A stretch of 64,000 nucleotides of DNA from Candidatus Buchananbacteria bacterium (lineage in GTDB: Bacteria > Patescibacteriota > Patescibacteriia > 2-01-FULL-39-33), in the NCBI GenBank assembly GCA_030650095.1, contig JAUSEE010000002.1, forward strand, positions 6,711 to 70,710, given 5' to 3'. Positions 10,251 to 60,388 of this stretch are shown here, piece after piece. Under the pieces are notes generated by a model that was given only the letters and a program-made list of their open reading frames with translations, was not told the DNA's origin and searched no databases. Numbering within the stretch: the stretch's first letter is position 1; each line of letters opens with the position of its first letter. The position numbers were made by a program, and so were the translations under genes.

Positions 10251-10286
10251 TTATAAAGCACTTACTATTAATGCAATTATAAGTAT

Positions 10287-10661: not shown

Positions 10662-10671
10662 ATAATCAGAT

Positions 10672-10706
10672 AATAAGACGGCTTAGACTAGCCGTCTTAT
10701 TTAATA
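10672..10706 (+). terminator. Rho-independent terminator
   Basis: taagacggct taga ctagccgtctta followed by tttaatatt. Confidence 0.55.
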
Positions 10707-10808
10707 TTAGCTGTTTGGTTTATTTTTTAAATAAGTGTTATAATAATAAAAGAACATAACAAAAATTGCATAATAAAAATTAGAAATTAATTAAATATTT
10801 GTTTTAAT

Positions 10809-13684: not shown

Positions 13685-13711
13685 AATAAAATACAAAATA
13701 ATAACAAGTTT

Positions 13712-14092: not shown

Positions 14093-14113
14093 ATAATAAT
14101 ATCTACATCAGAA

Positions 14114-14506
14114 GTGATGATAGCAGAGAACAAAATAAAACCGGATTGTAAGATTTTATTAGCCGAAGGCGACAGATTCTTATCGAAAGTTATCAGCAAT
14201 AAGCTGCTGCGGCGCGGTTTCTGCCTGTCTTTGGCTAATGACGGCTTGGAAGCTATGGCTAAAATAAAGACCGAACAGTTTGATTTGGTTTTACTGGATT
14301 TAACTTTAAGCAAGAAAAACGGCTTGGAAGTTTTGGCCGAATTAAAGAAAGATAAGAAATTAAAAATAAAAATCGTGGTTTTGTTAAGCTTAAGCAAAAC
14401 CAGCGACATAGAAAAAATAAAAAAATTAGGCATTACCGATTATATTATTAAAAGTGATTTGTCTATAAATACGCTGGCGGATAAAGTGGGAGAATTGATC
14501 AAATAA
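14114..14506 (+). CDS. Single-domain response regulator (receiver only, divergent)
   Basis: KILLAEGD...LVLLDLTLSKKNGLE...DYIIKS. Confidence 0.8.
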   Translation: MMIAENKIKPDCKILLAEGDRFLSKVISNKLLRRGFCLSLANDGLEAMAKIKTEQFDLVLLDLTLSKKNGLEVLAELKKDKKLKIKIVVLLSLSKTSDIEKIKKLGITDYIIKSDLSINTLADKVGELIK

Positions 14507-14603
14507 CAAAAAAGAAGGGGGGATAGCGCTGGTAGCTATTTTTATGTTATAATTAAAAAGCATATTTGTATGCTTAATTTTAGAAAGTAAATAAAAATAG
14601 ATT

Positions 14604-14999
14604 ATGCTGGGCCTAAAAAAACAAACAGCTAACAAGAAAGTCTTGCTGGTAGAGGATGATTCCCTTCTGGCTAACATATTAATGGATTCACTGGTTCGCG
14701 AAAAGTTTGACGCCGTTAACATAAAAGACGGCTTAGGGGTAATGGAGGCGGCTCAAAAGTTTAAGCCCGATATTGTTTTATTGGATTTGATTTTGCCGGG
14801 CCTGGACGGCTTTGAAGTCCTGAGGCAACTGAAAGCTGACAGCAAATTGAAAAGCGTGCCGGTTTTTATAATCTCTAATTTAGACAGCATTTCTGAGGTT
14901 AAATCGGCCAAAGCTTTGGGGGCGGAAGATTATTTTATCAAAGCCAATACCGATATAGAAAAAATCATAAAAGTAGTCAAAAAACGAATTAATAAGTAA
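14604..14999 (+). CDS. Single-domain response regulator (receiver only)
   Basis: VLLVEDDS...IVLLDLILPGLDGFE...DYFIKA. Confidence 0.85.
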   Translation: MLGLKKQTANKKVLLVEDDSLLANILMDSLVREKFDAVNIKDGLGVMEAAQKFKPDIVLLDLILPGLDGFEVLRQLKADSKLKSVPVFIISNLDSISEVKSAKALGAEDYFIKANTDIEKIIKVVKKRINK

Positions 15000-15058
15000 T
15001 ACCTATGCCACTAAGCGCGGATAAGGAGGAAAAAAAGCCCAGCGTAAAAGGAAACAAG

Positions 15059-15415
15059 ATGATTCTGATAGTGGAAGACGATCAGGTTCTTTTGAGGGTG
15101 ATGTATCTGTTTTTAAAGAGAAGATCCGGTTTTGCCATAGCTACCGCCAGCGATGGCGATACGGCCTTGAAAATGGCCCAAAGGCTTAAACCGAATGTTA
15201 TTTTATTAGATCTGATTCTGCCAAAAATGGATGGTTTTTCGGTCTTAAAATCACTTAAATCCGATCCGATGATGAAAGACATACCAGTGATAGTTTTATC
15301 CAATTTGGGGGATACCGGCGACATTGATAAAGCCAAAGATCTGGGCGCGGCTGATTATTTTGTCAAAGCCAATACCGATTTAGCCGTTATTTTGGAAAAA
15401 ATAAAAAATTATTAA
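15059..15415 (+). CDS. Single-domain response regulator (receiver only)
   Basis: Start moved to ATG 15059 (MILIVEDDQ, AAGGA 8 nt upstream); VILLDLILPKMDGFS...DYFVKA. Confidence 0.8.
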   Translation: MILIVEDDQVLLRVMYLFLKRRSGFAIATASDGDTALKMAQRLKPNVILLDLILPKMDGFSVLKSLKSDPMMKDIPVIVLSNLGDTGDIDKAKDLGAADYFVKANTDLAVILEKIKNY

Positions 15416-19200: not shown

Positions 19201-22200
19201 TCTGGGATTCCGGCACGGATTTGCCCAGTGTGGAAGATGACACGGTTTATGTGAGGTTAAGATCAACCGATACTTTAACTAACAGCGCTCTGTCGGCTTC
19301 CTCGGCTTTTGTTATTGATAATGTCAATCCGGTAGTTTCCAGCGTAACAGCTTCGCAAGATGCCAGCGCCAGGACTGTGACCATCGGCTATACTTTAACC
19401 GATCATAATAATTCCACAGTGGAATTGGATATTTCCGAAGACGGCGGTAGTACTTGGACTGTTACCGACAGTAGTGTAACCGGCGATGTGGGAGCTGGCA
19501 TAACTCCGGGAGCCGGTAAGTCAATCACTTGGAATGCCGGCACTGATTTTGACGATCAGTATCAAACCGATTTACAAGTTAGGATTAGGGCTACCGATAC
19601 CAAAGGCAATGTTAGCGACTGGGCCCAATCGGCTAATTTTACTCTAGACACCAAAGATCCGGTAGTCTCCAGTGTAACGGCCTCACAAGATAGCGGAGCC
19701 AAAACATTTGTTTTCCATTATGATGTTTCCGAAGATTTGGGCAATGTGACTGTAGTTTTGGCCATTTCCAGTAACAGCGGCAGTACTTATGTTGTGCCAA
19801 TTACTTCGGCTAGCGGAGATACGGGAGCTGGCATAACTTCCGGCACGGGCAAAACTATAACTTGGGATGCCGGCGCTGATTACGACGGTTTTGAAGAAAC
19901 CGACATGAAGATTAAAATAACCGCTACTGATCAATTTACCAATAGCAGCAATAACACCTCGGCTGATTTTTCACTTGATAGTTTAGCCCCCAGAGTTACC
20001 AGCGTTAGCGCCACGCAAAACAGCGGCGCCACCACAGTGGCTATAACCTATACTTTAGCCGATCAAAATAATTCAAATATTGAAATAGATATTTCCGAAG
20101 ATGGCGGCAGCACCTGGGCGGTAACCGACACCAGCGTAACCGGCGATGTGGGAGCCGGTGTGGGAGCCGGCAGTAAGACCATCACTTGGAATGCCGGCGC
20201 TGATTTTGACGAACAACAACAAAGCGATATTAGGGTGCGGGTGAGGGGAACAGATATTTATGCCAATGCCAGCGCCAATATGAGCTCATCTAATTTTTCT
20301 TTGGATACTAAAAACCCGGCAGTTAACGTGGCGGTTGATCTTTTGGCCCAGCCTAATGCCGGCGACAGCACGGTTTTAATCGGCGGTTCGTTTACTGAGG
20401 CCAATCCTAATACCAATAATTTTTATGTGGCTATAAATGGCACATTTTACGGCTCAGCCACAGCCGGCACTTCTAATACTGCCAGCCCCTCAAATCAGGC
20501 TACAGACGTGGGGACAACTTTAGACGGCAGTGATTATATCTCTCAAGTAAAAATCACTCATACCGATGATTTTGGCCAAACAGTTGATAATGAAGACACT
20601 AGTCCTAATTCAGCCTATGTTTATGTCAAACCATATACTCCTCAAGTTCCGACAGTTAATAATCCCACTGTTGGCACAGTTGATGTTTTAATCAACCCCC
20701 ATGCTTCAGAAGTATCCGGTTTGCAATACGCTATTTATGAAACATCCCAAGGCAAATATGTCCAAGCTGATGGCACTTTGGGCGCCTCGGCTGTTTGGCA
20801 GATAATGGGTACGGCTAGTGGCCAGTGGGGCAATAACACCAGTGTCAGCGGCAAAGTCAGGGTAAACGGCTTAACCGTTGATTCTTATCTTTACGCTTTC
20901 CAGGTAAAATCCAGAAATTCTTCCGATGATCTTCATGCTACTGCCAGTGAAAGCGCTTTCTCGTCTTCCGCTTCCTCTGTCAATCAATCGCCGTCAATCA
21001 GCATTACCTCTGTTTCTCAAACAACCGACGGCACCAAATATGTCACTATCAATTACACCGGCACTGATTTAGAGGGTGAAGCCAGCAGTTTAATTTCCTA
21101 CCAATATTCAACCAATAATAGCACTTGGTTTACCATGACCGAAAAAGCCGGTGTTGGCTCTGATGGCACCAGCGCTTTAACTTTCTCTTCTTCCGGCACC
21201 ACTCATGATTTTATGTGGGACGTGGGAGCTGATTTGGATAACACCGAAGACACCACGGTCTATGTGAGGTTAAGGGCCAATGATGGCACTTCCAGCGGCA
21301 ATATTGAAACTTCCAGCGCTTTTACTGTTGATACCAAAAATCCGGTTATATCTTCGGCTACCGGCACGCAGGTTGCCAGCTCTAATAATGTCACCTTAGG
21401 CTACACTTTAACTGATTTGTCCAGCGCTAATATAGAAATTGATATTTCCGAAGATGGCGGATCAAATTGGACAGTTACCGATACCAGCGTGACCGGCGAT
21501 ATCGGCTCGGGTATAACACCGGGCTCGGGCAAAGCGATTACCTGGAATGCCGGCGCTGATTTTGACGGCCAGGAACAAAGCGATATTAGATTCCGAGCCA
21601 GAGGCACGGATACTTATGGCAATCAAGGTTCTTATGCTTCCTCGGCTAATTTTTCCTTAGATACCAAAGATCCGGCAGTTTCTAATGTGAGCGCGTCTCA
21701 AAACTCCGGCGCTTCTACTATTGCTATAACTTACGATTTATCAGATGCTAATAATTCAACTGTAGAAATTGATATATCTTCAGATGGCGGCAGCACTTGG
21801 ACGGTAGGCGACAGTAGCGTGACCGGTGATGTGGGAGCAGGCGTAACTCCGGGAGCCGGCCAAACAATCACCTGGGATGCCGGCACTGATTTCTCCAGTC
21901 AAGATCAGACCGATATCAGGGTGAGAGTAAGAGCCACTGATATTTACAGCAATGCCAGCTCCAATGTGGAATCAGCTAATTTTTCTCTGGATACTTTGGG
22001 ACCTAGTATTTCCAGCGTGACGGCCAGCCAAACCAGCGGAGGCGATAATGTGGTTATAAATTATAATTTAACTGATAACAGCGCCGTTAATGTGGCCATA
22101 GATATTTCCGAAGACGGCGGATCAACCTGGACAGTAACCGATACCAGCGTGACCGGCGATGTGGGAGCAGGCGTTTCCCAAGGTTCCGGCAAAGCTATCA

Positions 22201-25200
22201 CTTGGAATGCCGGCGCTGATTTTGACAACCAAGATCAATCTGATCTAAGAGTCAGGGTTAGGGGAACTGATGCTTATACTAATTCCAGCGGTAATATAGA
22301 ATCGGCTAATTTCTCTTTGGATACCAAAGATCCGGCTACTAACTCTACAGCTAATTTAATCTCTCAACCAAACGCCGGTGATACTACTGTTTCTGTCGGC
22401 GGTTCATTTACAGAAACTAGTCCTAATACCAATGATTTCTATATGGCTCTAAATGGCGGAGCTTATGGCGCCTCAACTGCCGGCACTTCCAATAGCGCCT
22501 CGCCAACCAATCAAGCTACGGCTGCTGGCGCTACCCTAGACGGCAATGATTATGTTTCCAAAGTTAAAATTACCCATACTGATGATTTCGGCCATATTTT
22601 TGACAATGAAAATACCAGCCCGAATACATCTTACAAATATGTTAAGCCTTACACCCCACCGACACCGACAGTTAATAATCCTCAAAATACTTCAGCTGAT
22701 GTGACAATTGATAAAAATGCCTCGGAAACCAGCGGTTTGGAATATGCTATTTATGAAAATTCCACCGGACAATATGTCCAGGCTAATGGCACTTTAGGCG
22801 CTTCCGCTGTCTGGAGGCAAATTGGTACTGGTGCGGGAGAGTGGGGCGTATCTTCCGGCGTGAGCGGCAAAATAACAGTTAGCGGACTAACTTCACCGGT
22901 GGCCCAATATAATTTCCAGGTCAAATCCAGAAATACTTCTGACACATTAAACGCTTCTTCCAGCGAAAGCAGTTTGTCGGCCAGCGCCAGCATCACCAAC
23001 ACCTCGCCGGTTGTAGCTATCTCCAGTGTTGCCCAACAAACGGGCGGAGTTAATTATGTGAGCATAGATTATACCGGCACCGATGCTCAAAACGATACCA
23101 ACGATTTAAATATTTTTGAATATTCAACCGATAATTCCACTTGGTCTTCTATGACAGAAAAAGCCGGCGTCGGCTCGGACGGCACCAGTGATTTAATCTT
23201 TACTTCAGCCGGAGCCAGCTTTAATTTTGCCTGGGATTCGGCCGCTGATTTGCCCAACACGGAAGATTCAACTGTTTATATTAGACTACGTTCCACCGAC
23301 AGTTTAGCCAACAGCAATTTGGCCGCGTCCTCGGCTTTTGATATTGATAATTTAGGGCCGATAATTTCCAATGTTTCCGTTAGTCAGACGCCCAGCACCG
23401 GCAATATAGTTATAAACTATGACTTAAATGATAATACTACGGCCAATAATGCCATCACCATAGACATTTCCGAAGATGGCGGCAGCACTTGGACGGTAAC
23501 CGATACCAGCGTAACCGGTAGTGTGGGAGCCAGTATTTCTGCCGGTAGTGGAAAATCTATCACTTGGAATGCCGGCGCTGATTTTGACAATGAAGAGCAA
23601 AGCGATATGAAGGTTAGAATAAGAGGCACTGATTCTTACGGCAATGTGGGCAGTTATCAGCCGTCGTCAGACTTTTCTTTAGATACTAACAATCCGGTTG
23701 TTTCGGCAGTTAGCGCTTCACAAGGCGTTGGCAGTTCTGATGTGACGATAAATTATACTTTAACTGATGGTACGAGCGCCGGTCATTTGGTAGAAATAGG
23801 CTTATCCAGTGATGGCGGAGTCAATTGGAATGTCGCCACTTCCAGCGTTAGCGGCCATGTCGGCTCGGGCCAAACAACCGGTTCTAAATCGTTCACTTGG
23901 GAGGCGGGCACCGATTTTAGCAGTGAAGAGCAATCAGATATGAGGGTTAGGATTAGATCAACGGATTATTATGGCAATGTCAGCAGTTATGCCAGTTCGG
24001 CTAATTTCTCTTTAGATACAGCTAGTCCGACTATTTCCAATTTAGCCGCCAGCCAAACGGCCGGTGGCAGTAATGTCGCTATTGATTATGATTTGGCTGA
24101 TACCAGCGCCTCTAATTTAACTCTGGAAATTGATATCTCCGATAATGGCGGCAGCACCTGGACAGTTACCGACACCAGCTCCACCGGTAATATCGGCGCC
24201 AGCCAAACAACCGGCTTAAATAAAGCTATCACTTGGGCAGCCGGCACTGATTTAACCAATCAGGAGCAAAACGATATCAGAGTGCGACTGCGAGCCACAG
24301 ATACCTATGGCAATATCAGCAGCTACTTTGAATCATCTGATTTTGCGGTTGATACGGCCGGCCCGATAGGTCTTAGCGCTTTGTCTAAATTCTCTTCTAC
24401 TGATACCACCATTACTTTAAACTGGTCGTCAGCTGTAACTGATGCCAACTTTGACCATTATGAAATCTGGCATGGCTCAAACGCCAGTGATGTTGATGGC
24501 AGATCGGGCACGGCTGCTAATTGGGATCAAACAGATGATGCCAATTTAACTAATATTAATACGATTTCTACGGTTGTTACCGGTCTTAATGTAACTGGTA
24601 ATTATTATATGAAGATTTGGGCTGTTGATGATTATGGCAATGAAGTAACTATAGCTGCCATTAATGTCTTTGAAGCTCCGGCAACTCCAGAAGCTACAGT
24701 CACGCCAACCGGCGGAGGAGCCCCGGCAGAAATATTAACTCCGGATTTAGTGCCTCCGGCTTCACCTATTTTAAGCTCGGTTAATAGTCCGACCAATTCT
24801 ACTAATATTAGTATATCCGGCTTGGCTGAACCTCGATCCGTTGTGGACTTATACGATAATAATCAATTAATCGGACGCTTAATTTCGTTAACCAGTGGCA
24901 ATGGGCAATTTGAACAGAATTTCGCCTTTACTGAGGGCTCGCACGTCTTGACCGCCCGAGCTACTGATGCCGCCGGCAATGCCAGCGCCTTATCGGATCA
25001 ATTGATTTTAATAATTGATCAAACTCCGCCGGCTGCTCCGATTGTCTTGGTGCCTGATAATAATTCGGAAGTGAGTGACGCCACGCCTCAAATTATCGGC
25101 GTCAGTGAACCGCTAGCTGCTATTACCGTTTTAATTGATAATACCACCTCGCTTACTACCTTGGCCGATAATAACGGCGCTTGGAATTTGATTTTGCCCT

Positions 25201-25826
25201 CTGCTTCCGCCTTAACTGATGGCAGCCATAGCTTTGCTATCACTGCTACCGATTCTGCTGGCAATCTGGGTCCATCAACCGCGCTAGCGGTTACTAAAAT
25301 ATTTTCTCCTGTGACTGTTGAGGAAATTACGCCTCCTGTTGCCCCCTCAATACCGCTACCTTCTGGAGCCGGCATTACCGAAATAATTGAATCAACAGAA
25401 CTTCCAGGTATTCAAGTGCCGGAAGTTGTCCAGACAGCTGCCGTGGCCACCGAAAATAATATCCTCGCTTTTAGCGGAAAATCATTGCCTAACAAAGATG
25501 TAGTTGTTTATATCCATAGCGCTCAAGCTTTGATTTATCAAACCAGAACAGACAAAAATGGCAATTGGACCATAAATCATTCCCAAGATATTATAGAATT
25601 AACTCCCGGCCAGCATTCAATTTTTGCGGTAACCGTTGATCCAGTGGCTAAGGTTAAAAGTTTCCCCAGTGAAGTTAAATTATTTGAAGTCAAAAGAAAC
25701 TTTTTTGCCCTGCTCTTCAATTTGCTTAATATCCAAACCACCGCTTTAGTTTTGGGCATCACCCTAGTGGTTATCTTCTGGCTCTACCGCATAAGAAAGA
25801 AAAACTTAGCCTTAGCTGAGGCTTAA
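16254..25826 (+). CDS. Giant (3190 aa) repeat-rich cell-surface protein with ~17 Asp-box (S-x-D-G-G-S-T-W) Ig/FN3-like domains, N- and C-terminal membrane anchors
   Basis: Recurring ~100-aa unit ...DISEDGGSTWTVTDTSVTGDVGAG.T.G.GK.ITWNAGADFD...D.RVRVRGTD.YGN....SANFSLDTK.P; C-terminal TM LVLGITLVVIFWLYRIRKKN; Thr/Ser/Gly-rich. Confidence 0.8.
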   Translation: MSERWLNLFLKLSGFIFNTKQKVVKADNWVMVIPHVLVIIVFELGFAIISLPMYLIVSPKAVQERGFIFPMGEGEKSDKKDVIRVYTARRRISLTTGAGAGTFFVLKILLIVFTSLYLLGAQKLLAATQDWTFDTAGDYTYDSAKIEVTGGVGRLKNIGSATSGSTTNSAFTSDATDWTYADWLNNAGASGAYSSTGGNTGGNVQITLSSAKNKTTAGLYRQSFTTTVDSPDTATLNLDWSSISYSVPAPFDTYQLYAFIDTASGDPTLGQQVWSSGEITGTTAWASSATIDITSKVPTADTYYLKIVAYHDTPGTTGTYTTVAGFDNVVVNWSKTTVLYASDRPTINPTTSLSNEFVTTWDSFTETATKNGGEIYYQLSNDDGATWQYWNGSAWATAGASNYNTGSVINTNISTFGVTNHKIRWKAYLESNGSQQVILDNVNIGYTENDPTHVQNLSPAQNTTSGLMHVNYELKDDQSDPASLVVYEYSLTGAFSGEQTTMTASTTDASHNGVSGLSSSPTGVAHTFVWDAQTQIGAIYDASVYVRLRGSDGINVGDHTTSTAFAVDYVVPVVTNVSASQVSGSTNVTITYDLADDTSDNLLVELGISNDGGSTWVVPTVTASGHVGSGVTAGTGKSITWNAGTDYDEHQQSTMQVRVRAKDKYQNQGSYASSANFTLDTLNPVTNATSNLQAQPNAGDTTVSISGSFTEANPNTNDFYAALNGGAYSSATAGASDTVTPGTQSTAVGVTLDGNDYISGVKITHTDDFGQATDNENTSPNTAYKYVKPYTPQAPTLDNPVTTRLDLTINPHASETSGLDYLIQETTSGNYVQADGTLGASEVWQVMGTGSGQWGNNTSVSGKVRITGLSSPVANYIFKVKSRNNSDTAHAASSESAFSSTAQITNTAPSIALGSVAQTTDGTRYVPVNYTGTDGQGDLNDITVYEYSTDNSAWNTMTEKSGVGSEGLADLVFLSGGSAHNFVWDSGTDLPSVEDDTVYVRLRSTDTLTNSALSASSAFVIDNVNPVVSSVTASQDASARTVTIGYTLTDHNNSTVELDISEDGGSTWTVTDSSVTGDVGAGITPGAGKSITWNAGTDFDDQYQTDLQVRIRATDTKGNVSDWAQSANFTLDTKDPVVSSVTASQDSGAKTFVFHYDVSEDLGNVTVVLAISSNSGSTYVVPITSASGDTGAGITSGTGKTITWDAGADYDGFEETDMKIKITATDQFTNSSNNTSADFSLDSLAPRVTSVSATQNSGATTVAITYTLADQNNSNIEIDISEDGGSTWAVTDTSVTGDVGAGVGAGSKTITWNAGADFDEQQQSDIRVRVRGTDIYANASANMSSSNFSLDTKNPAVNVAVDLLAQPNAGDSTVLIGGSFTEANPNTNNFYVAINGTFYGSATAGTSNTASPSNQATDVGTTLDGSDYISQVKITHTDDFGQTVDNEDTSPNSAYVYVKPYTPQVPTVNNPTVGTVDVLINPHASEVSGLQYAIYETSQGKYVQADGTLGASAVWQIMGTASGQWGNNTSVSGKVRVNGLTVDSYLYAFQVKSRNSSDDLHATASESAFSSSASSVNQSPSISITSVSQTTDGTKYVTINYTGTDLEGEASSLISYQYSTNNSTWFTMTEKAGVGSDGTSALTFSSSGTTHDFMWDVGADLDNTEDTTVYVRLRANDGTSSGNIETSSAFTVDTKNPVISSATGTQVASSNNVTLGYTLTDLSSANIEIDISEDGGSNWTVTDTSVTGDIGSGITPGSGKAITWNAGADFDGQEQSDIRFRARGTDTYGNQGSYASSANFSLDTKDPAVSNVSASQNSGASTIAITYDLSDANNSTVEIDISSDGGSTWTVGDSSVTGDVGAGVTPGAGQTITWDAGTDFSSQDQTDIRVRVRATDIYSNASSNVESANFSLDTLGPSISSVTASQTSGGDNVVINYNLTDNSAVNVAIDISEDGGSTWTVTDTSVTGDVGAGVSQGSGKAITWNAGADFDNQDQSDLRVRVRGTDAYTNSSGNIESANFSLDTKDPATNSTANLISQPNAGDTTVSVGGSFTETSPNTNDFYMALNGGAYGASTAGTSNSASPTNQATAAGATLDGNDYVSKVKITHTDDFGHIFDNENTSPNTSYKYVKPYTPPTPTVNNPQNTSADVTIDKNASETSGLEYAIYENSTGQYVQANGTLGASAVWRQIGTGAGEWGVSSGVSGKITVSGLTSPVAQYNFQVKSRNTSDTLNASSSESSLSASASITNTSPVVAISSVAQQTGGVNYVSIDYTGTDAQNDTNDLNIFEYSTDNSTWSSMTEKAGVGSDGTSDLIFTSAGASFNFAWDSAADLPNTEDSTVYIRLRSTDSLANSNLAASSAFDIDNLGPIISNVSVSQTPSTGNIVINYDLNDNTTANNAITIDISEDGGSTWTVTDTSVTGSVGASISAGSGKSITWNAGADFDNEEQSDMKVRIRGTDSYGNVGSYQPSSDFSLDTNNPVVSAVSASQGVGSSDVTINYTLTDGTSAGHLVEIGLSSDGGVNWNVATSSVSGHVGSGQTTGSKSFTWEAGTDFSSEEQSDMRVRIRSTDYYGNVSSYASSANFSLDTASPTISNLAASQTAGGSNVAIDYDLADTSASNLTLEIDISDNGGSTWTVTDTSSTGNIGASQTTGLNKAITWAAGTDLTNQEQNDIRVRLRATDTYGNISSYFESSDFAVDTAGPIGLSALSKFSSTDTTITLNWSSAVTDANFDHYEIWHGSNASDVDGRSGTAANWDQTDDANLTNINTISTVVTGLNVTGNYYMKIWAVDDYGNEVTIAAINVFEAPATPEATVTPTGGGAPAEILTPDLVPPASPILSSVNSPTNSTNISISGLAEPRSVVDLYDNNQLIGRLISLTSGNGQFEQNFAFTEGSHVLTARATDAAGNASALSDQLILIIDQTPPAAPIVLVPDNNSEVSDATPQIIGVSEPLAAITVLIDNTTSLTTLADNNGAWNLILPSASALTDGSHSFAITATDSAGNLGPSTALAVTKIFSPVTVEEITPPVAPSIPLPSGAGITEIIESTELPGIQVPEVVQTAAVATENNILAFSGKSLPNKDVVVYIHSAQALIYQTRTDKNGNWTINHSQDIIELTPGQHSIFAVTVDPVAKVKSFPSEVKLFEVKRNFFALLFNLLNIQTTALVLGITLVVIFWLYRIRKKNLALAEA
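18293..24350 (+). repeat. Three tandem ~2.0-kb (~670-aa) super-repeats inside the giant gene
   Basis: Units begin near 18293, 20305 and 22321, each starting LDT(L/K)(N/D)P..N.....L.(A/S)QPNAGD(T/S)TV...SFTE(A/T)(N/S)PNTN(D/N)FY. Confidence 0.7.
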
Positions 25827-35442: not shown

Positions 35443-35468
35443 TTTGTTTTTAAATTATTTTTATTTTT

Positions 35469-35535
35469 GTCATTGCGAGGGACGAAGCAATCCCAGGCGA
35501 TATAAACATAAGATTGCTTCGTACCTCGCAATGAC
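35469..35535 (+). repeat. Family-1 nested-palindrome element, minimal copy 8
   Basis: gtcattgcgag ggac gaagcaatcc caggcgatataaacataag attgcttc gta cctcgcaatgac. Confidence 0.7.
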
Positions 35536-35559
35536 ATTTTAAAATCTTTTGACCACAAA

Positions 35560-43035: not shown

Positions 43036-43064
43036 CATTTTAACTTATTTTTAAACAAAAGTCA
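43036..43064 (-). promoter_or_regulatory. Candidate sigma70 promoter of rpmA (TTGACT-17-TAAAAT), -35 overlapping the end of the R2 repeat
   Basis: minus strand reads cTTGACTtttgtttaaaaataagtTAAAATgatg about 30 nt upstream of the rpmA start. Confidence 0.45.
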
Positions 43065-43066
43065 AG

Positions 43067-43206
43067 TTTTATAATGTTGCTGCCCGAATACCACTGGCTT
43101 TTAAGCCAGGGGATGAAGGGCAGTGTGAGTAAAAATACGTCGGCGGAGCCGACACCATCCATTTGAAACCGCCCAGATACCCCGCTCTTTAGAGCGGGGT
43201 CGGGTT
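43067..43206 (-). repeat. R2 structured repeat, minus-orientation copy
   Basis: Reverse complement of copies at 45829 and 47995; contains hairpins ccccgctctttagagcgggg and gtcggcggagccgac. Confidence 0.7.
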
Positions 43207-43251
43207 CATCAGTTATATATAAAAATAAGGCCAACTTGTTAAGTTGACCTT

Positions 43252-43929
43252 TTAATTTGGCCATTCTTGCAGGATGCCATCGGCAAACCCCCAATCAATA
43301 GCTTGCTCAGGAGTAAGAAAGACATCACTTTTCTTTTCCATTTCCCTATTAATCAGAGCGCGTATTTTTTCTTGGCTCCAGCCTTTGAATTTTGGACCAC
43401 CTCTGGCTTTTTCGACGTAAATATCAACCATTGTTTTGGCGCCAAGTTTGATGAAATCGATATTACTTTGAACTGTTCTCAGTTCGCCGCCAAGTTCCAA
43501 TGTTCCCAAATGGAACATAAAATAAGAATTGGGCATCATCAGCCTAATATCTCCGGCTTGGAAAATAATGGAAGACATGCTGCGGGCGTGGGTGTAGGAG
43601 ATTATAGTGACTTGATAAGGCATGGATTTTATGGTATCATAGATAGCCATGCCTTCCTCGTAGATTCCACCGCAAGTATGCAGATGGATTGTTACCGGCT
43701 CGGCAGCTGATTGCCTTCTTAAAATGTGAAGATTTTTAATGACTTTATTAGCCATCATAAATTCTACGCCCGGCTCTATGCCCTGGTAGCTATCGGTATT
43801 CATATCAACACCATGTATCCAAATATCACGATTAACTACATCAATCCAGTGGTTATGAACCTTCTCGACGAAATAAGCGGTTGAAATCGGCACACCAATG
43901 CGATTCCTGCCTTGCCCCATTTCTTTCAC
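43252..43929 (-). CDS. ClpP-family (S14) serine peptidase-like protein
   Basis: GGIYEEGMAIYDTIKSMPYQVTIISYTHARSMSSIIFQAGD resembles the ClpP core around the catalytic Ser. Confidence 0.5.
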   Translation of the reverse strand: MKEMGQGRNRIGVPISTAYFVEKVHNHWIDVVNRDIWIHGVDMNTDSYQGIEPGVEFMMANKVIKNLHILRRQSAAEPVTIHLHTCGGIYEEGMAIYDTIKSMPYQVTIISYTHARSMSSIIFQAGDIRLMMPNSYFMFHLGTLELGGELRTVQSNIDFIKLGAKTMVDIYVEKARGGPKFKGWSQEKIRALINREMEKKSDVFLTPEQAIDWGFADGILQEWPN

Positions 43930-44062
43930 CTCCTCGTTGGTTTTTTAATGTGCGTTAGCCTTAGTAGATTAATTTTATTATATTTTAAGGCATTAATCAA
44001 TATCTACCAATATCTCGCCAATTTGTTATAATTTATCTATTAAATAGTAAGATACAAAAACT

Positions 44063-44869
44063 ATGCTTGGAAAAGTAGTCATGATTTTAACTTTAGCGGT
44101 TTTTTTAACCGGCTGCGGCAGACAGTCGACTTTTGTCAATGTTAATTTACCACTGGAAGACATCAAGCCGTCTGTAAATGGCGTAACGTCAACCGGTGCC
44201 GGTGGAAATAATGTTACCAACACTAATACTAATATTAACAAGAATACCAATGTATCCGCTCCTGTGCCAACTAAGGTAGAAATTCCGGCTAAACTAGAAT
44301 TGAAAGTGGCTTTCGCGCCTCAAGCGCCTTTCGGCAATTGGAACGAATTACATGAAGAGGCCTGCGAGGAAGCTTCCATGATAACAGCGGCTAAATATTT
44401 TTTAAGCCAGCCCTTAACTGAAGCAATAATGGAAGAAGAAATAGCTAAATTGGATGCTTGGGAAAAAAGTAACGGCTATAAGATTGATTTGAGCGCTTCT
44501 CAAACGGCTGCTGTGTTGGAAGCCTATTTTAAGGTGCAGGCCGAAGTGAGTGATGATGTCAGCGTGGACCGGATTAAGTATGAATTAAGCCGCGGCAATT
44601 TAATAATAGTGCCGGCTGCCGGCCGGGAATTGGACAATCCTTATTTTAGAAGTCCAGGACCGATTTATCATATGTTGGTTATCAGAGGATACAATAGCAG
44701 TGAATTTATTGTTAATGAAGTCGGCACAAAAAGAGGCGATGGCTTTAAATATAAGTATCAAACTTTGATCAGCGCTGTTCATGATTGGGATCCTGCTTGG
44801 TCTCATTATGAAGTTATAGGTAGCCAAATGAGCGCCCAACCCAAAAGAATGGTCATAGTTAGTAAGTAG
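44063..44869 (+). CDS. Lipoprotein with C39-like (YvpB-type) cysteine peptidase domain
   Basis: Lipobox LTGC; QAPFGNWNELHEEACEEASMITAAKYF resembles the C39_2 catalytic Cys region. Confidence 0.4.
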   Translation: MLGKVVMILTLAVFLTGCGRQSTFVNVNLPLEDIKPSVNGVTSTGAGGNNVTNTNTNINKNTNVSAPVPTKVEIPAKLELKVAFAPQAPFGNWNELHEEACEEASMITAAKYFLSQPLTEAIMEEEIAKLDAWEKSNGYKIDLSASQTAAVLEAYFKVQAEVSDDVSVDRIKYELSRGNLIIVPAAGRELDNPYFRSPGPIYHMLVIRGYNSSEFIVNEVGTKRGDGFKYKYQTLISAVHDWDPAWSHYEVIGSQMSAQPKRMVIVSK

Positions 44870-45003
44870 CAATATTGGACTTTTAACTTTGACAGCTCAA
44901 GCTTATTTTGCTATGGTATAAATACCAACTAATTTAGTAGGAATTAAATGGAATGTCTTTCTGACTATTTCCAAGTTGCCGGTTTTATCAATAATTTAAT
45001 TTT

Positions 45004-45846
45004 ATGATACCAAGCTTAATCATTGCCCTAAGAGAAACTCTGGAAGCCGCCCTTATTATTGGCATCATCATAGGCTATTTAAATAAAACCGGACAACAAA
45101 AATACAAAAAAATTGTTGCTTTGGCTGTTATTTTAGCGGTTATAGCCAGTGTTATTGGAGCTTTTTTGTTTAATACACTAGCGGGCGGGTTTGAAGGCAG
45201 GGCCGAACAGATATTTGAGGGTATCACTATGGCGATTGGAGCTATCATGCTTACCACTATGATCTTATGGATGATCGGCCATAAAAAAACGGGCCAGGGC
45301 TTAAAAGATCATTTGGCCAGTGGAGCAGTGAATCAGCGCGCAGTAGGATTATTTTTTTTAGTTTTTATTTCAATTTTAAGAGAGGGCATAGAATTAGTTC
45401 TTTTTTTGGGTGTAGCCAGTTTCGTCTCTGGTGGCAATAATCTGCTTGGCGCATTGGCCGGCATAATTTTAGCTGTTATTTTCGGCTACACCATATTTGC
45501 CGGCTTGATGCAAATTGACATTAAAAAGTTTTTTAACATAACCAGCATCTTGCTTGTATTATTCGCCGCCGGTCTGGTAGCTCACGGTATCCATGAGTTT
45601 GAAGAAGCTGGAATTATACCGATTGTTATTGAGCATATTTGGGATATAAATCCGGCTGTAAATGCCGATGGCAGTTATCCGGCTCTTCATGAAGACGGCT
45701 GGCTAGGTGGTATTATGAAAGGGTTATTCGGCTATAATGGCAATCCATCACTTTTGGAATTAATCGGTTATGTCTTATACTTATTAATTATTACCCTAGT
45801 CGGTAAAAAAAATAATCCGGTTTCAATAAACCCGACCCCGCTCTAA
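45004..45846 (+). CDS. FTR1/EfeU-family high-affinity iron permease; C-terminus supplied by R2 repeat
   Basis: Two RExxE motifs (RETLEAAL, REGIELVL), 7 TM; last residues NPTPL-stop lie inside the repeat. Confidence 0.65.
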   Translation: MIPSLIIALRETLEAALIIGIIIGYLNKTGQQKYKKIVALAVILAVIASVIGAFLFNTLAGGFEGRAEQIFEGITMAIGAIMLTTMILWMIGHKKTGQGLKDHLASGAVNQRAVGLFFLVFISILREGIELVLFLGVASFVSGGNNLLGALAGIILAVIFGYTIFAGLMQIDIKKFFNITSILLVLFAAGLVAHGIHEFEEAGIIPIVIEHIWDINPAVNADGSYPALHEDGWLGGIMKGLFGYNGNPSLLELIGYVLYLLIITLVGKKNNPVSINPTPL

Positions 45847-45968
45847 AGAGCGGGGTATCCGGGCGGTTTCAAATGGAGGGTGTCGGCTCCGCCGACGTAT
45901 TTTTCCTCACACTGCCCCCCGTCCCCTGGCTTAAAAGCCAGTGGTATTCGGGCAGCAACATTATAAAA
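45829..45968 (+). repeat. R2 structured repeat, plus-orientation copy
   Basis: aacccgaccccgctctaaagagcggggtatccgggcggtttcaaatggagggtgtcggctccgccgac...ggcttaaaagccag...cagcaacattataaaa. Confidence 0.7.
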
Positions 45969-46039
45969 ACACCTTTATGATTTATGGGCTGAAAAATTGC
46001 CGGCTTAATACGGTGAATAAAAAATTATATTAATAATAT

Positions 46040-46573
46040 ATGATCGAACTAACGCAAGTATTATCAGATGAACACCAAAATATTTTGAAAGTTATCGGAG
46101 CGCTTAAAAAAGAGTGCCAAGCCATAGAAAACGGCCGGCCGGTGGACCAGGAATTTTTTGCCACCGCCATTGATTTTATCAGGAACTACGCTGACAAGTT
46201 TCATCATGCCAAAGAAGAGGACATTTTATTTAAGGCCATGTGCCAAGATGATGTGGCTATGCATTGCAACCCGGTAGATCAAATGTTGCATGAGCATGAT
46301 TTGGGGCGCAATTATGTTAAAAATTTAGAAGAAGGCTTGAATCAAAACAATATTAATGATATTTTAATGAACGCCAGAGGCTACGCCTATTTACTGGAGG
46401 ATCATATTTCCAAAGAGGACAATATTTTATATCCCATGGCCGACCAGGTTTTATCATTGGAAAAACAGCAAGCCATAAAGCGTGATTTTGAAACAGCTGA
46501 AAGTGTTAAATTCGGCCCGGAAGTGAAAGAAAAATATTTGAGCCTAGTTAAGATTTTTGAAGAGAGAATATAA
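46040..46573 (+). CDS. Hemerythrin-like (HHE cation-binding) di-iron protein
   Basis: H-x3-E / HHAKEED / HEHD / HISKED spacing typical of hemerythrin-like domains. Confidence 0.6.
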   Translation: MIELTQVLSDEHQNILKVIGALKKECQAIENGRPVDQEFFATAIDFIRNYADKFHHAKEEDILFKAMCQDDVAMHCNPVDQMLHEHDLGRNYVKNLEEGLNQNNINDILMNARGYAYLLEDHISKEDNILYPMADQVLSLEKQQAIKRDFETAESVKFGPEVKEKYLSLVKIFEERI

Positions 46574-46585
46574 AATCAATGAACC

Positions 46586-46810
46586 ATGATACGTAAAATA
46601 AAAAAACAATTAAACAAGATACGTCCCTACATCCAAATGGATGGCGGCGATGTTGAATTTATTTCTTTTGATGATAAATCCGGCGCTTTGACTATCAGAT
46701 TGCAAGGAGCTTGCGTAGGCTGTCCTATGTCGCAAATCACTTTGCAAGAAGGGATAGGCAAGACTATCAAACAAGAAATACCGGAAGTCAGGGAAGTCAT
46801 AGCTATTTAA
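46586..46810 (+). CDS. NifU-like (Nfu C-terminal domain) Fe-S cluster scaffold protein
   Basis: 74 aa, IRPYIQMDGGDVEF...CVGCPMS. Confidence 0.65.
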   Translation: MIRKIKKQLNKIRPYIQMDGGDVEFISFDDKSGALTIRLQGACVGCPMSQITLQEGIGKTIKQEIPEVREVIAI

Positions 46811-46812
46811 AT

Positions 46813-48012
46813 ATGAAACATAATATTTATTTTGACAATGCCGCCACCACTAAAGTCGATCCAGCAGTTTTAAGTGCCATGCTGCCTTATTTTAGCGATG
46901 AGTATGGCAATGCTTCCTCCCTTCATTATGCCGGCTTGAACAACCGGGTAGTTGTGGATCGTTCACAGGCTAAAATAGCCGATTTTTTGGGTTGCGATAA
47001 ATCGGAGGTATATTTCACGTCCGGAGCTACGGAAAGCGATAATATGGCCATTTTAGGCGTTACAGAGGCCATAAACAATGGCTCAAATAAGGCTAAAAGG
47101 CATGTTATTACCACTAAGATAGAACATGATGCTATTTTAGAGCCTTGCCGTGAATTGGAAAAAATGGGCGTTAAAGTAACTTATCTTACTCCCAATCAAG
47201 ACGGCCTTGTTACTGCCGAAAAAGTGAAGGCAGCCATTGAGCCGGAAACTGTTCTGGTTTCCATAATGTATGTTAATAATGAAATAGGGACAATTTTGCC
47301 GATTGGGGAAATCGGCCGGATGATTACCCAGTTAAACAGCCAAAGAGAGAATAAGATATATTTTCATACTGATGCCACTCAAGCCTTGAATTTTTTGGAT
47401 TGCAATGTGGAGGCTCTAAAAGTAGATTTATTATCTCTTTCCGGCCATAAAATTTACGGCCCCAAGGGCATCGGCGCAATTTATATCAGACGAGGCACGC
47501 CCTTCAAGCCTATTACCTTCGGCGGGCATCAGCAGGCTGGCGTTAGGCCGGGAACTTATAACGTGCCAGCCGTAGCGGGTTTAGCCGAGGCGGTAAATTC
47601 TTTAAGCGATAAAAAAACAATTGACCAGCAAAATGATAAAATTAAAGAATTAAGAGATTATATTATTAAGCAAGTGCTCCTAAGAATAACCGGATCAATT
47701 GTTACCGGTACCAAAGAGGAGAGATCTCCCAATAATGCCAGCTTTGTTTTTGAAGGCGTTAAAGGCGAGGATATCGTTTTGAGCTTGTCCGAAAAAGGCC
47801 TAGCTGTTTCTACCGGTTCGGCTTGTTCCTCCGGTTCGCTAGATCCGTCTCATGTGCTCTTGGCTTTGGGCTTAAAACCGGAATTGGCTCATGGCAGCTT
47901 AAGAGTCAGCTTGAGCAAGTATAATACCGAAAATGAAGCCAAGGTATTTGTAGAAGAGCTTGAGGAAACCGTTTCCCAGCTTAGAAAAATAATGAACCCG
48001 ACCCCGCTCTAA
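46813..48012 (+). CDS. iscS: Cysteine desulfurase (IscS/NifS class); C-terminus supplied by R2 repeat
   Basis: Start set at ATG 46813 (MKHNIYFDNAATTKVDPAV); PLP lysine region SLSGHKIYGPKGIGA; SSGSACSS active Cys; ends NPTPL-stop inside the repeat. Confidence 0.85.
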   Translation: MKHNIYFDNAATTKVDPAVLSAMLPYFSDEYGNASSLHYAGLNNRVVVDRSQAKIADFLGCDKSEVYFTSGATESDNMAILGVTEAINNGSNKAKRHVITTKIEHDAILEPCRELEKMGVKVTYLTPNQDGLVTAEKVKAAIEPETVLVSIMYVNNEIGTILPIGEIGRMITQLNSQRENKIYFHTDATQALNFLDCNVEALKVDLLSLSGHKIYGPKGIGAIYIRRGTPFKPITFGGHQQAGVRPGTYNVPAVAGLAEAVNSLSDKKTIDQQNDKIKELRDYIIKQVLLRITGSIVTGTKEERSPNNASFVFEGVKGEDIVLSLSEKGLAVSTGSACSSGSLDPSHVLLALGLKPELAHGSLRVSLSKYNTENEAKVFVEELEETVSQLRKIMNPTPL

Positions 48013-48234
48013 AGAGCGGGGTACCCGTCTGCCTACGCCTACCTTAATTTATTGATTAAGGCATTGGGTTTGCGTAAAAATAATTTGTTTTTAAGAAAAA
48101 ATAAGGACGGCAATGGCGGGCAGGTCAGGGCGGTTGAAAATGGAAGGTGTCGGCTCCGCCGACGTATTTTTCCTCACACTGCCCTTCATCCCCTGGCTTA
48201 AAAGCCAGGGGTATTCGGGCAGCAACATTATAAA
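47995..48234 (+). repeat. R2 structured repeat, plus-orientation copy with ~100-nt internal insertion
   Basis: Same ends as 45829-45968; insertion carries hairpin ccttaat-ttattg-attaagg. Confidence 0.7.
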
Positions 48235-48242
48235 ATACTCAA

Positions 48243-48272
48243 GAAAAAACCGCCGTGAGGGCGGTTTTTTTA
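48243..48272. terminator. Strong bidirectional rho-independent terminator between iscS (+) and the pilus operon (-)
   Basis: aaaaaaccgccgtgagggcggttttttt: 7-bp GC stem flanked by A-run and T-run. Confidence 0.65.
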
Positions 48273-48590
48273 AGGCTTGGGCTGCTCGGGAGGTGGGAGG
48301 GTTAAGTTTTGGAAAGGATCCTTTATTTGCTCGGTATTGATCTGTTCTGTTTGGATTTTAGATTCAACATTGCTTATAATCTGGTTAAACTTATCCCTTT
48401 CCAAGCTTTGGTCGGATATTTCTTTTCTGAGATCGGTAATAAGCTCGGCTTGAATTATAGTTTGATAAACATTGTTGTATAAAAATCTGGTTAAGATAAT
48501 CAGGGTAATAACAATCACAATTATAGTGGCCGGGTAAAGATAGCGGACTATCAGAAAAAAATTGATTTTTTTAATATTTGGGCGTTTCAT
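48270..48590 (-). CDS. Small membrane protein at the end of the pilus operon
   Basis: 106 aa, one TM, overlaps pilO stop; no motif. Confidence 0.3.
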   Translation of the reverse strand: MKRPNIKKINFFLIVRYLYPATIIVIVITLIILTRFLYNNVYQTIIQAELITDLRKEISDQSLERDKFNQIISNVESKIQTEQINTEQIKDPFQNLTLPPPEQPKP

Positions 48591-58720: not shown

Positions 58721-60388
58721 TTAAAGGGTGGTGGAGACGTCTACTTGGAAAGCGCCATCTACCAGGGTAACTGTTTGGCCGTTAATCTTAACGGTCATGA
58801 GTTCCAGTGGAATATAACCTCCGCTGGTCGCGTCAGAAACCACTCCAAAACGCAGAATATTGGGACGGAATTTACTCACTGTTCCGGAAGCATTACCACT
58901 GGTAACAGCAAAAGTTTGCCGTTCGATCCAGGGGTTGCCGCCGGTCTGGTGGTACAACTCCAAGCCAATGACACCAGGGTTGCCGCCGGTAGCCGAGAAG
59001 TTCAGCACGCTACCGTTCCAAGTTAGATTGATGTTAATCAATCCACCCGGGTTGCTTTCGCTGGCAAACACAGCCGTCACGGAGACATCGCTGTCCATCG
59101 TGACCATACCCGGGTTGTTAAAAGCATCGGTGCCATTAACGATCCACTTACTGAATGTCCATCCTGTTGCCGCCGTGGCCGAGATAGTCACTTGCGTGCC
59201 AGCAGCATAGCTACCAGCTCCAGTGACAGTACCCTGGCCCTGAACGGTAATAGAGAGAACGTGGTTGGTGGGTTGCTGTATTATATTGGACACATCAACC
59301 TGGTAGGCTGTATTTCCGTCTACATTAACCAGTGGAACATTTATGCCGTTAATTCTAACAGACGCCGATTCAAATGGCACATATCCGCCACTTACCGCGC
59401 TTGAAACAACTCCGAAGCGTAGAATGTTGGGACGGAATTTATTCACCGTTCCGGAAGCGTTACCACTGGTAACAGCAAAAGTCTGCCGTTCGATCCAGGG
59501 GTTGCCGCCGGTCTGGTGGTACAACTCCAAGCCAATAACACCAGGGTTGGCGCCAGTAGCCGAGAAGTTCAGCACACTGCCATCCCAAGTGAGATCAACA
59601 CTAATAGGACCGCCGGGATTTCCATTACTGGTAAACACAGCCGTCACGGAGACATCGCTGTCCATCGTGATCGTGCCGGGATTGTTGTAGGCCAAAGTGC
59701 CGTTGACAATCCAGTGGTCAAAACTCCAACCATTTTCTGGTGTAGCTGTGATAATCACATCCGTACCGGCTGGGTAAGTCCCCGCGCCGGTCGTCGTGCC
59801 CTGTCCTTGGGTGGTAATATTTAGATCGAAAAATTCTCCGCCCTCTCTGGTAAAAGAGGTGGCGAAACCGGTTCCGTTATTGGCTGTGGCGGTAACAATC
59901 AACGATTTTACGCTTCCACTCATGTAGAAGTCAAAGGTATTGAAAGCCACGCCATTTTCTACGCCGCCGCTCAAATGCAAATCATCAATAGAGGCGATAA
60001 TTCCCAAAGCAATCAAATAGCCCCAGAGGTCTTCAGGCTCATAAGTTTTATAAAGCCCATCCTCATCATTCGCCAGGGAAATATTTTTATGACCGTCGGC
60101 GTTGTTATAAACGCTGACGCTGATGGCCTCGCTTAGGCCATCAATGGAAAAAGTAGCCTGGACTTTTGACATAGGTACGCCGTCATAGCGTACGCTGCCG
60201 AAAACCGGGCCTGTGTTAGAGGGAATAATAATGTTGTCATAATTTTCTAATGTGTCAGAAAATAATTCCTGTCCATTCTGATTTTCCAATTGAGCAGTCA
60301 CCACCAGCGTCGCCGGTGGCGGGCAACCCAAAAAGATAATGGAAATAAAACAAAAAACCGCAATTACCGAGATCAACTTTGTCATCAT
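58721..60388 (-). CDS. Secreted protein with two near-identical InlB-B-repeat-like modules
   Basis: Signal peptide; twice ...GQGT(V/T)TGAG(S/T)Y.AGT.V.I.AT...GW(T/S)F..WIVNGT.A(F/Y)NNPG..TMDSDVSVTAVF... Confidence 0.5.
   Translation of the reverse strand: MMTKLISVIAVFCFISIIFLGCPPPATLVVTAQLENQNGQELFSDTLENYDNIIIPSNTGPVFGSVRYDGVPMSKVQATFSIDGLSEAISVSVYNNADGHKNISLANDEDGLYKTYEPEDLWGYLIALGIIASIDDLHLSGGVENGVAFNTFDFYMSGSVKSLIVTATANNGTGFATSFTREGGEFFDLNITTQGQGTTTGAGTYPAGTDVIITATPENGWSFDHWIVNGTLAYNNPGTITMDSDVSVTAVFTSNGNPGGPISVDLTWDGSVLNFSATGANPGVIGLELYHQTGGNPWIERQTFAVTSGNASGTVNKFRPNILRFGVVSSAVSGGYVPFESASVRINGINVPLVNVDGNTAYQVDVSNIIQQPTNHVLSITVQGQGTVTGAGSYAAGTQVTISATAATGWTFSKWIVNGTDAFNNPGMVTMDSDVSVTAVFASESNPGGLININLTWNGSVLNFSATGGNPGVIGLELYHQTGGNPWIERQTFAVTSGNASGTVSKFRPNILRFGVVSDATSGGYIPLELMTVKINGQTVTLVDGAFQVDVSTTL
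58740..59860. repeat. Tandem ~560-bp duplication (about 95% identical) within a GC-rich gene
   Basis: Segment gggacggaatttaYtcacYgttccggaagcRttaccactggtaacagcaaaagtYtgccgttcgatccaggggttgccgccggtctggtggtacaactccaagccaat occurs at ~58861 and ~59421. Confidence 0.7.

Follow-up and report, generated by a model that had tools for sequence, protein, structure and literature searches.

In a 64,000-nucleotide stretch of DNA from a Candidatus Buchananbacteria bacterium (contig JAUSEE010000002.1, positions 6,711 to 70,710; hereafter the window), two unrelated genes end with the same five residues, NPTPL, followed by a stop codon. The genes encode an FTR1 iron permease and a cysteine desulfurase (IscS/NifS-like), and in both cases the tail originates in a copy of a structured 142-nt repeat, R2, that is an insertion relative to orthologous loci in related genomes. 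The fold of R2 is conserved on the evidence of compensatory changes among its copies. On balance, R2 is best explained as non-autonomous mobile DNA, most likely of the PATE-like kind derived from the IS200/IS605 family. Among small noncoding transposons it represents a new family within a known kind, and not a new kind of system.

The repeat and the C-termini of FTR1 and IscS

The copies of R2 in the window, their hairpins (H1 to H3), and the two genes that run into them are listed below, with the limits of the R2 unit as set after comparison with relatives.

43068-43209, minus strand: R2 copy A, 142 nt, between the ClpP-like gene (own terminator at 43251-43227) and the promoter-like site of rpmA; H1 at 43180-43199, H2 at 43139-43153, H3 at 43091-43112
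45826-45967, plus strand: R2 copy B, 142 nt, whose initial 18 nt and TAA serve as the six last codons and the stop of FTR1
45836-45855, plus strand: H1 of copy B, 8-bp stem; the loop is TAAA on this strand, where it holds the stop, and UUUA on the other strand
45882-45896, plus strand: H2 of copy B, GTCGGC-TCC-GCCGAC, then GTATTTTT; terminator-like in this orientation only
45911-45955, plus strand: H3 of copy B, in two tiers, with outer stem CTGCCC/GGGCAG and inner hairpin at 45923-45944
47992-48234, plus strand: R2 copy C, a long form of 243 nt, whose initial 18 nt and TAA serve as the six last codons and the stop of IscS
48024-48124, plus strand: extra module of copy C, 101 nt long, placed between H1 and the remainder, with a CTGCC...GGCAG closing stem
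41-58, minus strand: solo R2 end fragment, an exact match to the last 18 nt of R2 (GGGCAGCAACATTATAAA)
45004-45846, plus strand: FTR1 gene (iron permease); R2 supplies residues 275-280 (INPTPL) and the stop
46813-48012, plus strand: gene for the cysteine desulfurase (IscS/NifS-like); R2 supplies residues 394-399 (MNPTPL) and the stop

The three copies in the window share 94 to 95% identity. Between copies A and B there are 7 differences in 142 positions, while copy C is identical to copy A over its first 32 nt and has six differences from it over its last 110 nt. A repeat search paired 43067-43209 with 45826-45968 (143 nt, 95% complementary), and also 43067-43177 with 48125-48235 and 43178-43219 with 47982-48023. 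Probes for the two ends (25 nt and 24 nt, with up to three mismatches) matched the three R2 copies only, and shuffled sequence gave no matches. With a covariance model of R2, the scores were 166 bits for copy A, 157 bits for copy B, and 110 bits for copy C over 48101-48234. The initial annotation, a first reading of the window, had placed the copies correctly to within 3 nt, and it had rightly taken the 84-aa and 75-aa open reading frames (ORFs) at 43040..43294 and 48113..48340 for translations of the repeat. It had also noted an edge fragment at 40-75, of which only 18 nt (41-58) are common with the R2 3' end; this fragment adjoins the T-run of a terminator and an R1-type repeat. The copies are clustered: a span of 5.2 kb holds all three, out of the 64 kb of the window (P of about 0.02 under random placement). 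No further copy was found in the approximately 5 kb beyond its left end (L035), and L036, which falls within the window, gave no additional sequence.

Junctions of copies A and B are reproduced by an independent assembly. Logan contig L037 (run SRR13727527) corresponds to window positions 43180-45854 with 0 mismatches and ends inside H1 of copies A and B, as would be expected of an unresolved repeat. It backs the left junction of copy B, and with both left junctions reproduced in this way, the copies are not an artefact of collapsed repeats.

FTR1 and IscS each enter a plus-strand copy at the first base of R2, read six codons, and then stop. FTR1 ends ...PVSINPTPL and IscS ends ...LRKIMNPTPL, with the TAA stop of both in the loop of H1. 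The initial annotation had described this shared ending and the position of the stop, and the sequence and its translations bear it out. Pfam agreed with the earlier names of the ClpP-like, C39-like, and hemerythrin genes of the same region, and precomputed domains agreed for FTR1, NifU, and the desulfurase (Aminotran_5).

Orthologues of the two proteins lack the tail. Among the 240 homologues listed (the best 120 per gene), an ending of the type N[PL]T[PA][LV] occurred only in the two proteins of the window. The eight nearest IscS orthologues (67 to 76% identity) are 391 to 395 aa long, compared with 399 aa in the window, and none carries it; their C-termini read KLRKT, KLRQM, KLRQMS, KLRNL, RLRKL, KLRQI, KLRSL, and SLRQM, where the window protein has QLRKI followed by MNPTPL. 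Seven of these eight stop exactly at the R2 junction, that is, at the residue before R2 starts. The C-termini of FTR1 orthologues are unrelated and rich in lysine. Since the nearest orthologues of both FTR1 and IscS end without it, the tail is not ancestral. Together with the spacers described below, these C-termini uphold the earlier proposal that R2 was inserted at the 3' ends of genes and supplied their last residues and stop.

The shared tail of FTR1 and IscS is best read as a by-product and not as a function. We considered a mini-ORF encoding a leader peptide (MNPTPL or MNLTAV) and rejected it, as the peptide varies with the covariation of the stem and its ATG is ATA in two copies. Frame 1 of R2 meets a stop immediately (A-TGA) and frame 2 stays open over 47 codons, so that frames 0 and 1 would be favored by selection alone as well.

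Gene order, ends, and family of R2

The same genes stand in the same order in relatives that lack the repeat. We compared the window with seven syntenic loci (L003-L009) from relatives whose IscS proteins are 72 to 76% identical to that of the window. In these loci the order is pyrG, rpmA, a ClpP-like gene (or small ORFs instead), the C39-like gene, FTR1, hemerythrin, NifU, and IscS, and beyond IscS there is a convergent 105-aa ORF followed by PilO, PilN, and PilM. A check with the covariance model showed R2 to be absent from all seven loci. The distance from the IscS stop to the next gene is about 35 to 40 nt in the orthologous loci, including a shared terminator, versus 258 nt here, and the spacer between FTR1 and hemerythrin is 1 to 72 nt in relatives versus 193 nt here. 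The kept gene order and the longer spacers identify copies B and C as insertions into an old, stable arrangement.

Within this region, the ClpP-like gene itself is present in the window, L005, and L006. In L004 and L007-L009, two small ORFs without Pfam domains, one of 103 aa and one of 86 or 126 aa, lie instead between rpmA and the C39-like gene. This difference may reflect gene decay or replacement.

The limits of R2 are sharp. Conservation starts at ATGAA (ATAAA in copy B and in L019, one of the loci from relatives described below) and ends exactly after TAAA in nine full-length copies of 141 to 143 nt. The next base outside this block varies on either side, and the flanks diverge. R2 has no terminal inverted repeats, as its 5' end (ATGAACCCGACC...) is dissimilar to its reverse-complemented 3' end (TTTATAATGTTGC...), and a comparison of flanks at nine sites gave no consistent target-site duplication. 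Read on the opposite strand, the layout is TTTA, a 19-nt linker (TAATGTTGCTGCCCGAATA), a hairpin, a central part, the 8-bp hairpin with its UUUA loop, and a final 10 nt (TCGGGTTCAT), and the ends of the element on this strand are TTTA followed by TAATGTTGC... and ...GGGTTCAT.

The TTTA of this strand (TAAA on the other) is constant in the nine aligned copies. We infer that R2 inserts immediately 5' of TAAA, or 3' of TTTA on the other strand. Computational removal of R2 with its terminal TAAA retained restored IscS to ...AGA AAA ATA TAA (LRKI and a stop), which is the orthologue length, and gave an orthologue-like spacer to the native terminator. The same operation left FTR1 ending ...NPVS and a stop, inside the orthologue length range, and at the related locus L002 the old frame closed with a TGA overlapping the next gene's ATG. 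The empty junctions predicted in this way are AGAAAAATA joined to TAAAATACTC and GGTTTCA joined to TAAAAACACC. For IscS, the orthologues indicate that the ancestral stop codon would have been the TAA of the terminal TAAA. With insertion 5' of TAAA, a gene coming from this side would enter R2 at its first base, and the frame and the tail would thereby be fixed. Models with a TA or an ATAAA duplication were rejected, as there is no conservation of the left flanks and IscS would have no stop close by if the target were ATAAA.

R2 occurs beyond the window. In all, 10 unrelated insertion sites were recorded, from several Buchananbacteria-like populations. Three are those of the window; the others, recovered by one genome scan, one metagenome scan, and a protein search with translated R2, are L001 (= L028), L002 (= L015, L021), L014, L019, L023, L024, and L031-L034. 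The remaining pattern matches in the genome and metagenome scans were due to chance. Two of the sites, L001 and L002, are on contigs of one metagenome-assembled genome, RIFCSPLOWO2_01_FULL_39_33. Copies at different sites are near-identical, and those of L023 and L024, at different sites, are 100% identical. No real R2-like sequence was found by BLAST against phages and plasmids or in three pattern scans of viral contigs checked with the covariance model.

The tenth site was reached through the protein search, whose single weak match (P0241) led to the variant of L031-L034. At the position of the extra module of copy C, this variant carries a short form of the CCTGCCTAC..GGCAGG hairpin. The hairpin (CCTGCC-TACT-GGCAGG, L031 positions 4101-4120) is the counterpart of the module closed by CTGCC...GGCAG in copy C, and a similar one (CTGCC-CAATA-GGCAG) lies at window positions 54-66, beside the solo end fragment. 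These forms of the module show that the R2 family is modular, with conserved termini and a modular interior, as in copy C and the L031 variant.

The orientation of R2 relative to its neighbors is mixed. The three window copies, and likewise those of L001 and L019, run in the direction of the upstream gene; at L002 and L014, R2 lies antisense to the genes on both sides. A 139-aa gene at L002 enters R2 from its other end and owes 22 of its residues to it. In L019, which belongs to another lineage, an independent R2 lies at positions 2735-2876 just downstream of rpmA, across that gene from the place of copy A and approximately 300 nt from the position equivalent to that of copy A. This insertion beside rpmA and the clustering of copies in the window hint at local hopping or at a regional hot spot. 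With near-identical copies at unrelated sites, we consider it very likely that R2 is a mobile, non-autonomous element.

Fold and class of the element

R2 folds into three hairpins on either strand. H1 (CCCCGCTC-TAAA-GAGCGGGG) is enclosed by an outer stem; H2 (GTCGGC-TCC-GCCGAC) is followed by a T-run; and H3 is two-tiered, with the inner hairpin CCCCTGGC-TTAAAA-GCCAG(T/G)GG. Folding z-scores were -4.6 to -7.0 with RNA parameters and -4.9 to -9.0 with DNA parameters, under which the opposite strand has the same predicted fold (z of -4.9 to -9.0). The stable hairpins listed by the initial annotation are real features of the repeat.

Across the family, this fold is maintained by paired substitutions. 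In an alignment of nine copies with 44 predicted pairs, 96.9% of cells were paired, and compensatory changes on both sides were found in 12 of the 44 pairs, compared with 1 to 3 in controls with slid partners. None of 500 shuffles reached the covariation score. The stem of H1 appears as CCCCGCTC/GAGCGGGG, CTGCGGTC/GACCGCAG, and CCCCAGTC/GACTGGGG, and the outer stem of H3 as CTGCCC/GGGCAG, CTGGCC/GGCCAG, and TGCCA/TGGCA. One position of the inner stem of H3 is T:A, A:T, or G:C, and both tiers of this hairpin carry compensatory changes. The loops (TAAA, TCC, and TTAAAA) are constant throughout, as is the core stem of H2. All four covarying helices consist of Watson-Crick pairs only, and G-U pairs are confined to the purine-rich extension of H2 against the T-run. 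Such helices, free of G-U pairs, agree with a structure that is needed on DNA or on both strands, and less well with an ordinary RNA.

The two end modules are built alike, each with an outer stem, the motif CCC(G/A)(A/G)ATA, and an inner hairpin, and they stand in direct orientation. R2 is thus composed of two structurally similar, two-tier hairpin end modules and a small invariant middle hairpin.

This anatomy resembles that of IS200/IS605 elements. IS608 has neither inverted repeats nor a target duplication (PMC5934647, PMC5027513), and it is cleaved 19 nt 5' of its left hairpin and 10 nt 3' of its right one (PMC3597680). Insertion in the family takes place 3' of a fixed tetra- or pentanucleotide that is kept on the left flank (PMC5027513, PMC5934647). 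PATEs are fused left and right ends of such elements, and an "RE-like tetraloop," with an 8-bp stem and a UUCA or UUUA loop, is found in IS200/IS605 right ends, sotRNAs, and PATEs (PMC4615843).

Like PATEs, R2 has no inverted terminal repeats and no target duplication. As in PATEs and IS608, it has direct-orientation subterminal hairpins at both ends, since H1 and H3 lie on the same strand, each after CCC(G/A)(A/G)ATA on the opposite strand. On that strand, H3 is the proposed left-end hairpin. The linkers measure 19 nt and 10 nt, the values of IS608, if TTTA is counted as flank and the 8-bp stem as the foot of the hairpin. On the opposite strand, H1 has an 8- to 9-bp stem and a UUUA loop in all family members, which is a likeness of shape only, and a constant tetranucleotide, presumed to be flank, stands at the other end. 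The anatomy of the end modules, the linkers, and the tetraloop place R2 nearest to PATEs, for which the Halobacterium PATE-derived RNA VNG_R0052 and parent elements such as IS608 serve as comparison. R2 differs from them in its host, a bacterium of the candidate phyla radiation (CPR), in its extra invariant central hairpin followed by a T-run, and in the occurrence of both orientations within 5 kb. It also differs in that no cognate TnpA/TnpB was found in the 64-kb window and the R2-bearing loci, and in that neither sequence nor covariance-model comparison gave a significant match to sotRNA or HgcC. The link to IS200/IS605 is drawn from anatomy only, and we regard membership of R2 in that family as close to an even call.

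If R2 does belong to this class, its behavior could be accounted for as follows. A Y1 (HUH) transposase encoded elsewhere would recognize the end hairpins on single-stranded DNA, and R2, of the "peel-and-paste" class, would be PATE-like, with a left end fused to a right one. Insertion would occur just 3' of the fixed tetranucleotide TTTA. Because its complement, TAAA, is a common stop-codon context in this AT-rich genome, an insertion could fall between the last sense codon and the stop, and the gene would then read into the right end of R2 in a fixed frame and meet the TAA of the hairpin loop six codons on.

Several observations weigh against the IS200/IS605 assignment. Neither tnpA nor tnpB was found in the 64-kb window or the R2-bearing loci (motif scans, and Pfam for 20 candidate ORFs), nor did any autonomous element bounded by ends like those of R2 turn up. 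Within 5.2 kb, copy A points the other way from copies B and C, in a region where the GC skew is positive and does not switch between 43 and 46 kb. IS200/IS605 elements favor one orientation relative to replication, although this bias is not absolute, and the comparison, which leans against the assignment, involves only three copies. Both end linkers of R2 are partly paired in outer stems, which is not described for IS608, and the TTTA target can be told from the end of the element only by means of the empty site of a near-identical strain. Swaps of whole hairpin modules could account for part of the compensatory signal; single swapped pairs in the H3 stems, with identical sequence between the arms, exclude this for those pairs. 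Finally, searches by E-value with the region and with single copies gave weak hairpin matches only, and the Rfam matches of copy A among them are at noise level, namely 17.2 bits to sot0042 (RF02656; gathering score 88, E of 0.01) and 17.5 bits to HgcC (RF00062; gathering score 50, E of 0.034). We discarded these matches as support, as they are absent for the L001 and L019 variants and unrelated small-RNA models reach similar E-values. Over the whole 64-kb window no Rfam family reached its gathering score, and hence there is no tRNA, rRNA, or riboswitch in it. Integron attC sites were also considered and rejected, as the ends of R2 do not pair together, its three hairpins are separate, and RYYYAAC/GTTRRRY cores were not seen.

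The strongest competitor, which we nonetheless consider unlikely, holds that R2 is mainly a functional RNA kept by selection on transcripts, with its spread secondary. It would be a small RNA gene or a portable 3'-untranslated-region (3'-UTR) module made up of a stop codon, an intrinsic terminator, and a stabilizing hairpin. The strong covariation would fit such a role, as would the terminator-like H2 and T-run, which each of the three window copies shows on its sense strand alone, and the H2 extension, which alternates among G-U, A-U, and G-C and is workable on the sense strand only. The five sites where R2 is co-oriented with the upstream gene (the window copies, L001, and L019) also agree with it, but at L002 (= L015, L021) and L014 R2 is antisense to both neighbors. 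Moreover, the covarying helices have no G-U pair, the most constant parts are both termini and not the modular interior, the neighboring genes are functionally unrelated, no Rfam family matched R2 at threshold, and the same operons exist in relatives without it.

A less probable idea still is that the copies are stand-alone genes for omega-RNA-like guide RNAs. Insertion next to TTTA would create a perfect TATAAT at the left junction (TTTA joined to TAATGT), and an RNA might start inside R2, pass through the hairpins, and exit the right end into the flanking DNA. It could then guide a TnpB encoded elsewhere against the empty site and so retain R2 at gene ends in an ultra-compact genome. A weaker form of this idea would have R2 specialized for stop codons and carrying its own replacement stop.

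It is very improbable that R2 is a classical cut-and-paste MITE (miniature inverted-repeat transposable element) of the Correia or ERIC type, moved by a DDE transposase through terminal inverted repeats and with target duplication. The size, the copy number, and the location between genes and at gene ends are typical of bacterial MITEs, and MITEs do donate coding sequence in other bacteria; a paper on a Coxiella MITE deals with protein and small RNA evolution. However, the termini of R2 share no inverted similarity, the flanks compared at nine sites show no consistent duplication, and its end hairpin modules are in direct, not inverted, orientation.

The initial annotation had likened R2 to Rickettsia palindromic elements (RPEs) and Correia elements, and the likeness holds in part. 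RPEs are structured repeats of 100 to 150 nt that give in-frame residues to unrelated proteins, and R2 shares with them no more than this contribution of coding sequence by a repeat, without any sequence relation. RPEs usually lie within ORFs and are translated through, whereas R2 adds six residues and then a stop. Correia elements of Neisseria carry terminal inverted repeats of 26 bp together with a TA duplication. Both of these defining features are missing from R2, which is not of Correia type, even though, like Correia and ERIC sequences, it is a small intergenic repeat that can carry promoter- or terminator-like signals and would alter transcript ends. REPs are single palindromes of 20 to 40 nt headed by a conserved tetranucleotide and often occur as inverted pairs. 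R2 resembles the REP/BIME/REPIN group, which RAYT (TnpA-REP) transposases mobilize, in being based on hairpins, in sitting in 3' UTRs and operon spacers, and probably in single-strand mobilization in trans by an HUH Y1 enzyme. It differs from REPs in its 142-nt unit with three different hairpins and distinct left and right ends.

The initial annotation had further proposed that the inverted copies A and C bracket an iron/Fe-S island, and a reading of this 4.8-kb ClpP-IscS block as a composite mobile island is barely credible. The two copies are mutually inverted and flank the block, but a third copy lies inside it, and the seven R2-free loci have the same order with the same outside neighbors, namely pyrG and rpmA at one edge and pil genes at the opposite one. 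The inverted arrangement is without evident meaning. Least credible of all is a tail that is ancestral or coincidental, or copies that are an assembly artefact: distant IscS homologues do end ...LRKMSPLK, faintly like ...LRKIMNPTPL, but the homologue survey, the 94 to 95% DNA identity of the repeat in which the tail codons lie, and the independent contig speak against each of these in turn.

Predicted transcription signals, other repeats, and meaning

A pattern scan placed terminator-like sites at 45880-45898, 48147-48165, and 43155-43137, which correspond to H2 of the three copies in the sense orientation only; H2 is thus a predicted intrinsic terminator-like hairpin. A sense transcript would meet the stop in H1, then this hairpin, and then H3. 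Each insertion falls at the end of a transcription unit or close to it: one follows FTR1, one precedes the native terminator of IscS, and one follows the terminator of the ClpP-like gene. A long hairpin follows FTR1 in at least one relative as well. Probably, the effect of R2 on its host genes is tolerated rather than useful.

The proposed promoter signals remain at the level of patterns, as they are weak matches to consensus. The promoter-like -35 hexamer upstream of rpmA (43065-43060), which had been thought to overlap copy A, abuts it with no overlap. The TATAAA hexamer described as facing outward at the 3' end of R2 is present, but the other strand reads TATAAT, which faces inward.

The window contains other repeated sequences. 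A second hairpin repeat family (GTCATTGCGAG ... GAAGCAATC...GATTGCTTC ... CGCAATGAC) has many copies in both orientations, at 110-200, 1145-1236, 9053-9745, 10115-10216, and 35453-35538, and one copy adjoins the R2 fragment at 41-58. A giant ORF of 3190 aa (16254-25826) has nested internal repeats with periods of approximately 2013 nt and 330 nt and 60 to 77% identity. A run of small genes at 9745-15415 encodes proteins of 122 to 136 aa; the three that were scanned are single-domain response-regulator receivers, and these genes account for several families of short direct repeats. Lastly, a 300-nt direct repeat (58756-59622; 80% identity, 567 nt apart) lies inside a 555-aa ORF at 58721-60388.

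R2 is a clean case, at the level of sequence, of a small mobile element that rewrites protein C-termini in compact CPR genomes. By inserting before a TAA, it adds the same short tail to unrelated proteins, a change that precise excision would undo. Gene callers and comparative studies should accordingly not read the shared tail or the repeat-derived ORFs of 75 to 84 aa as biology, and R2 breaks assemblies, as Logan contig L037 illustrates. If the link to IS200/IS605 is true, R2 would be a sign of active single-strand transposition, possibly with TnpB-type guide RNAs, in Buchananbacteria.

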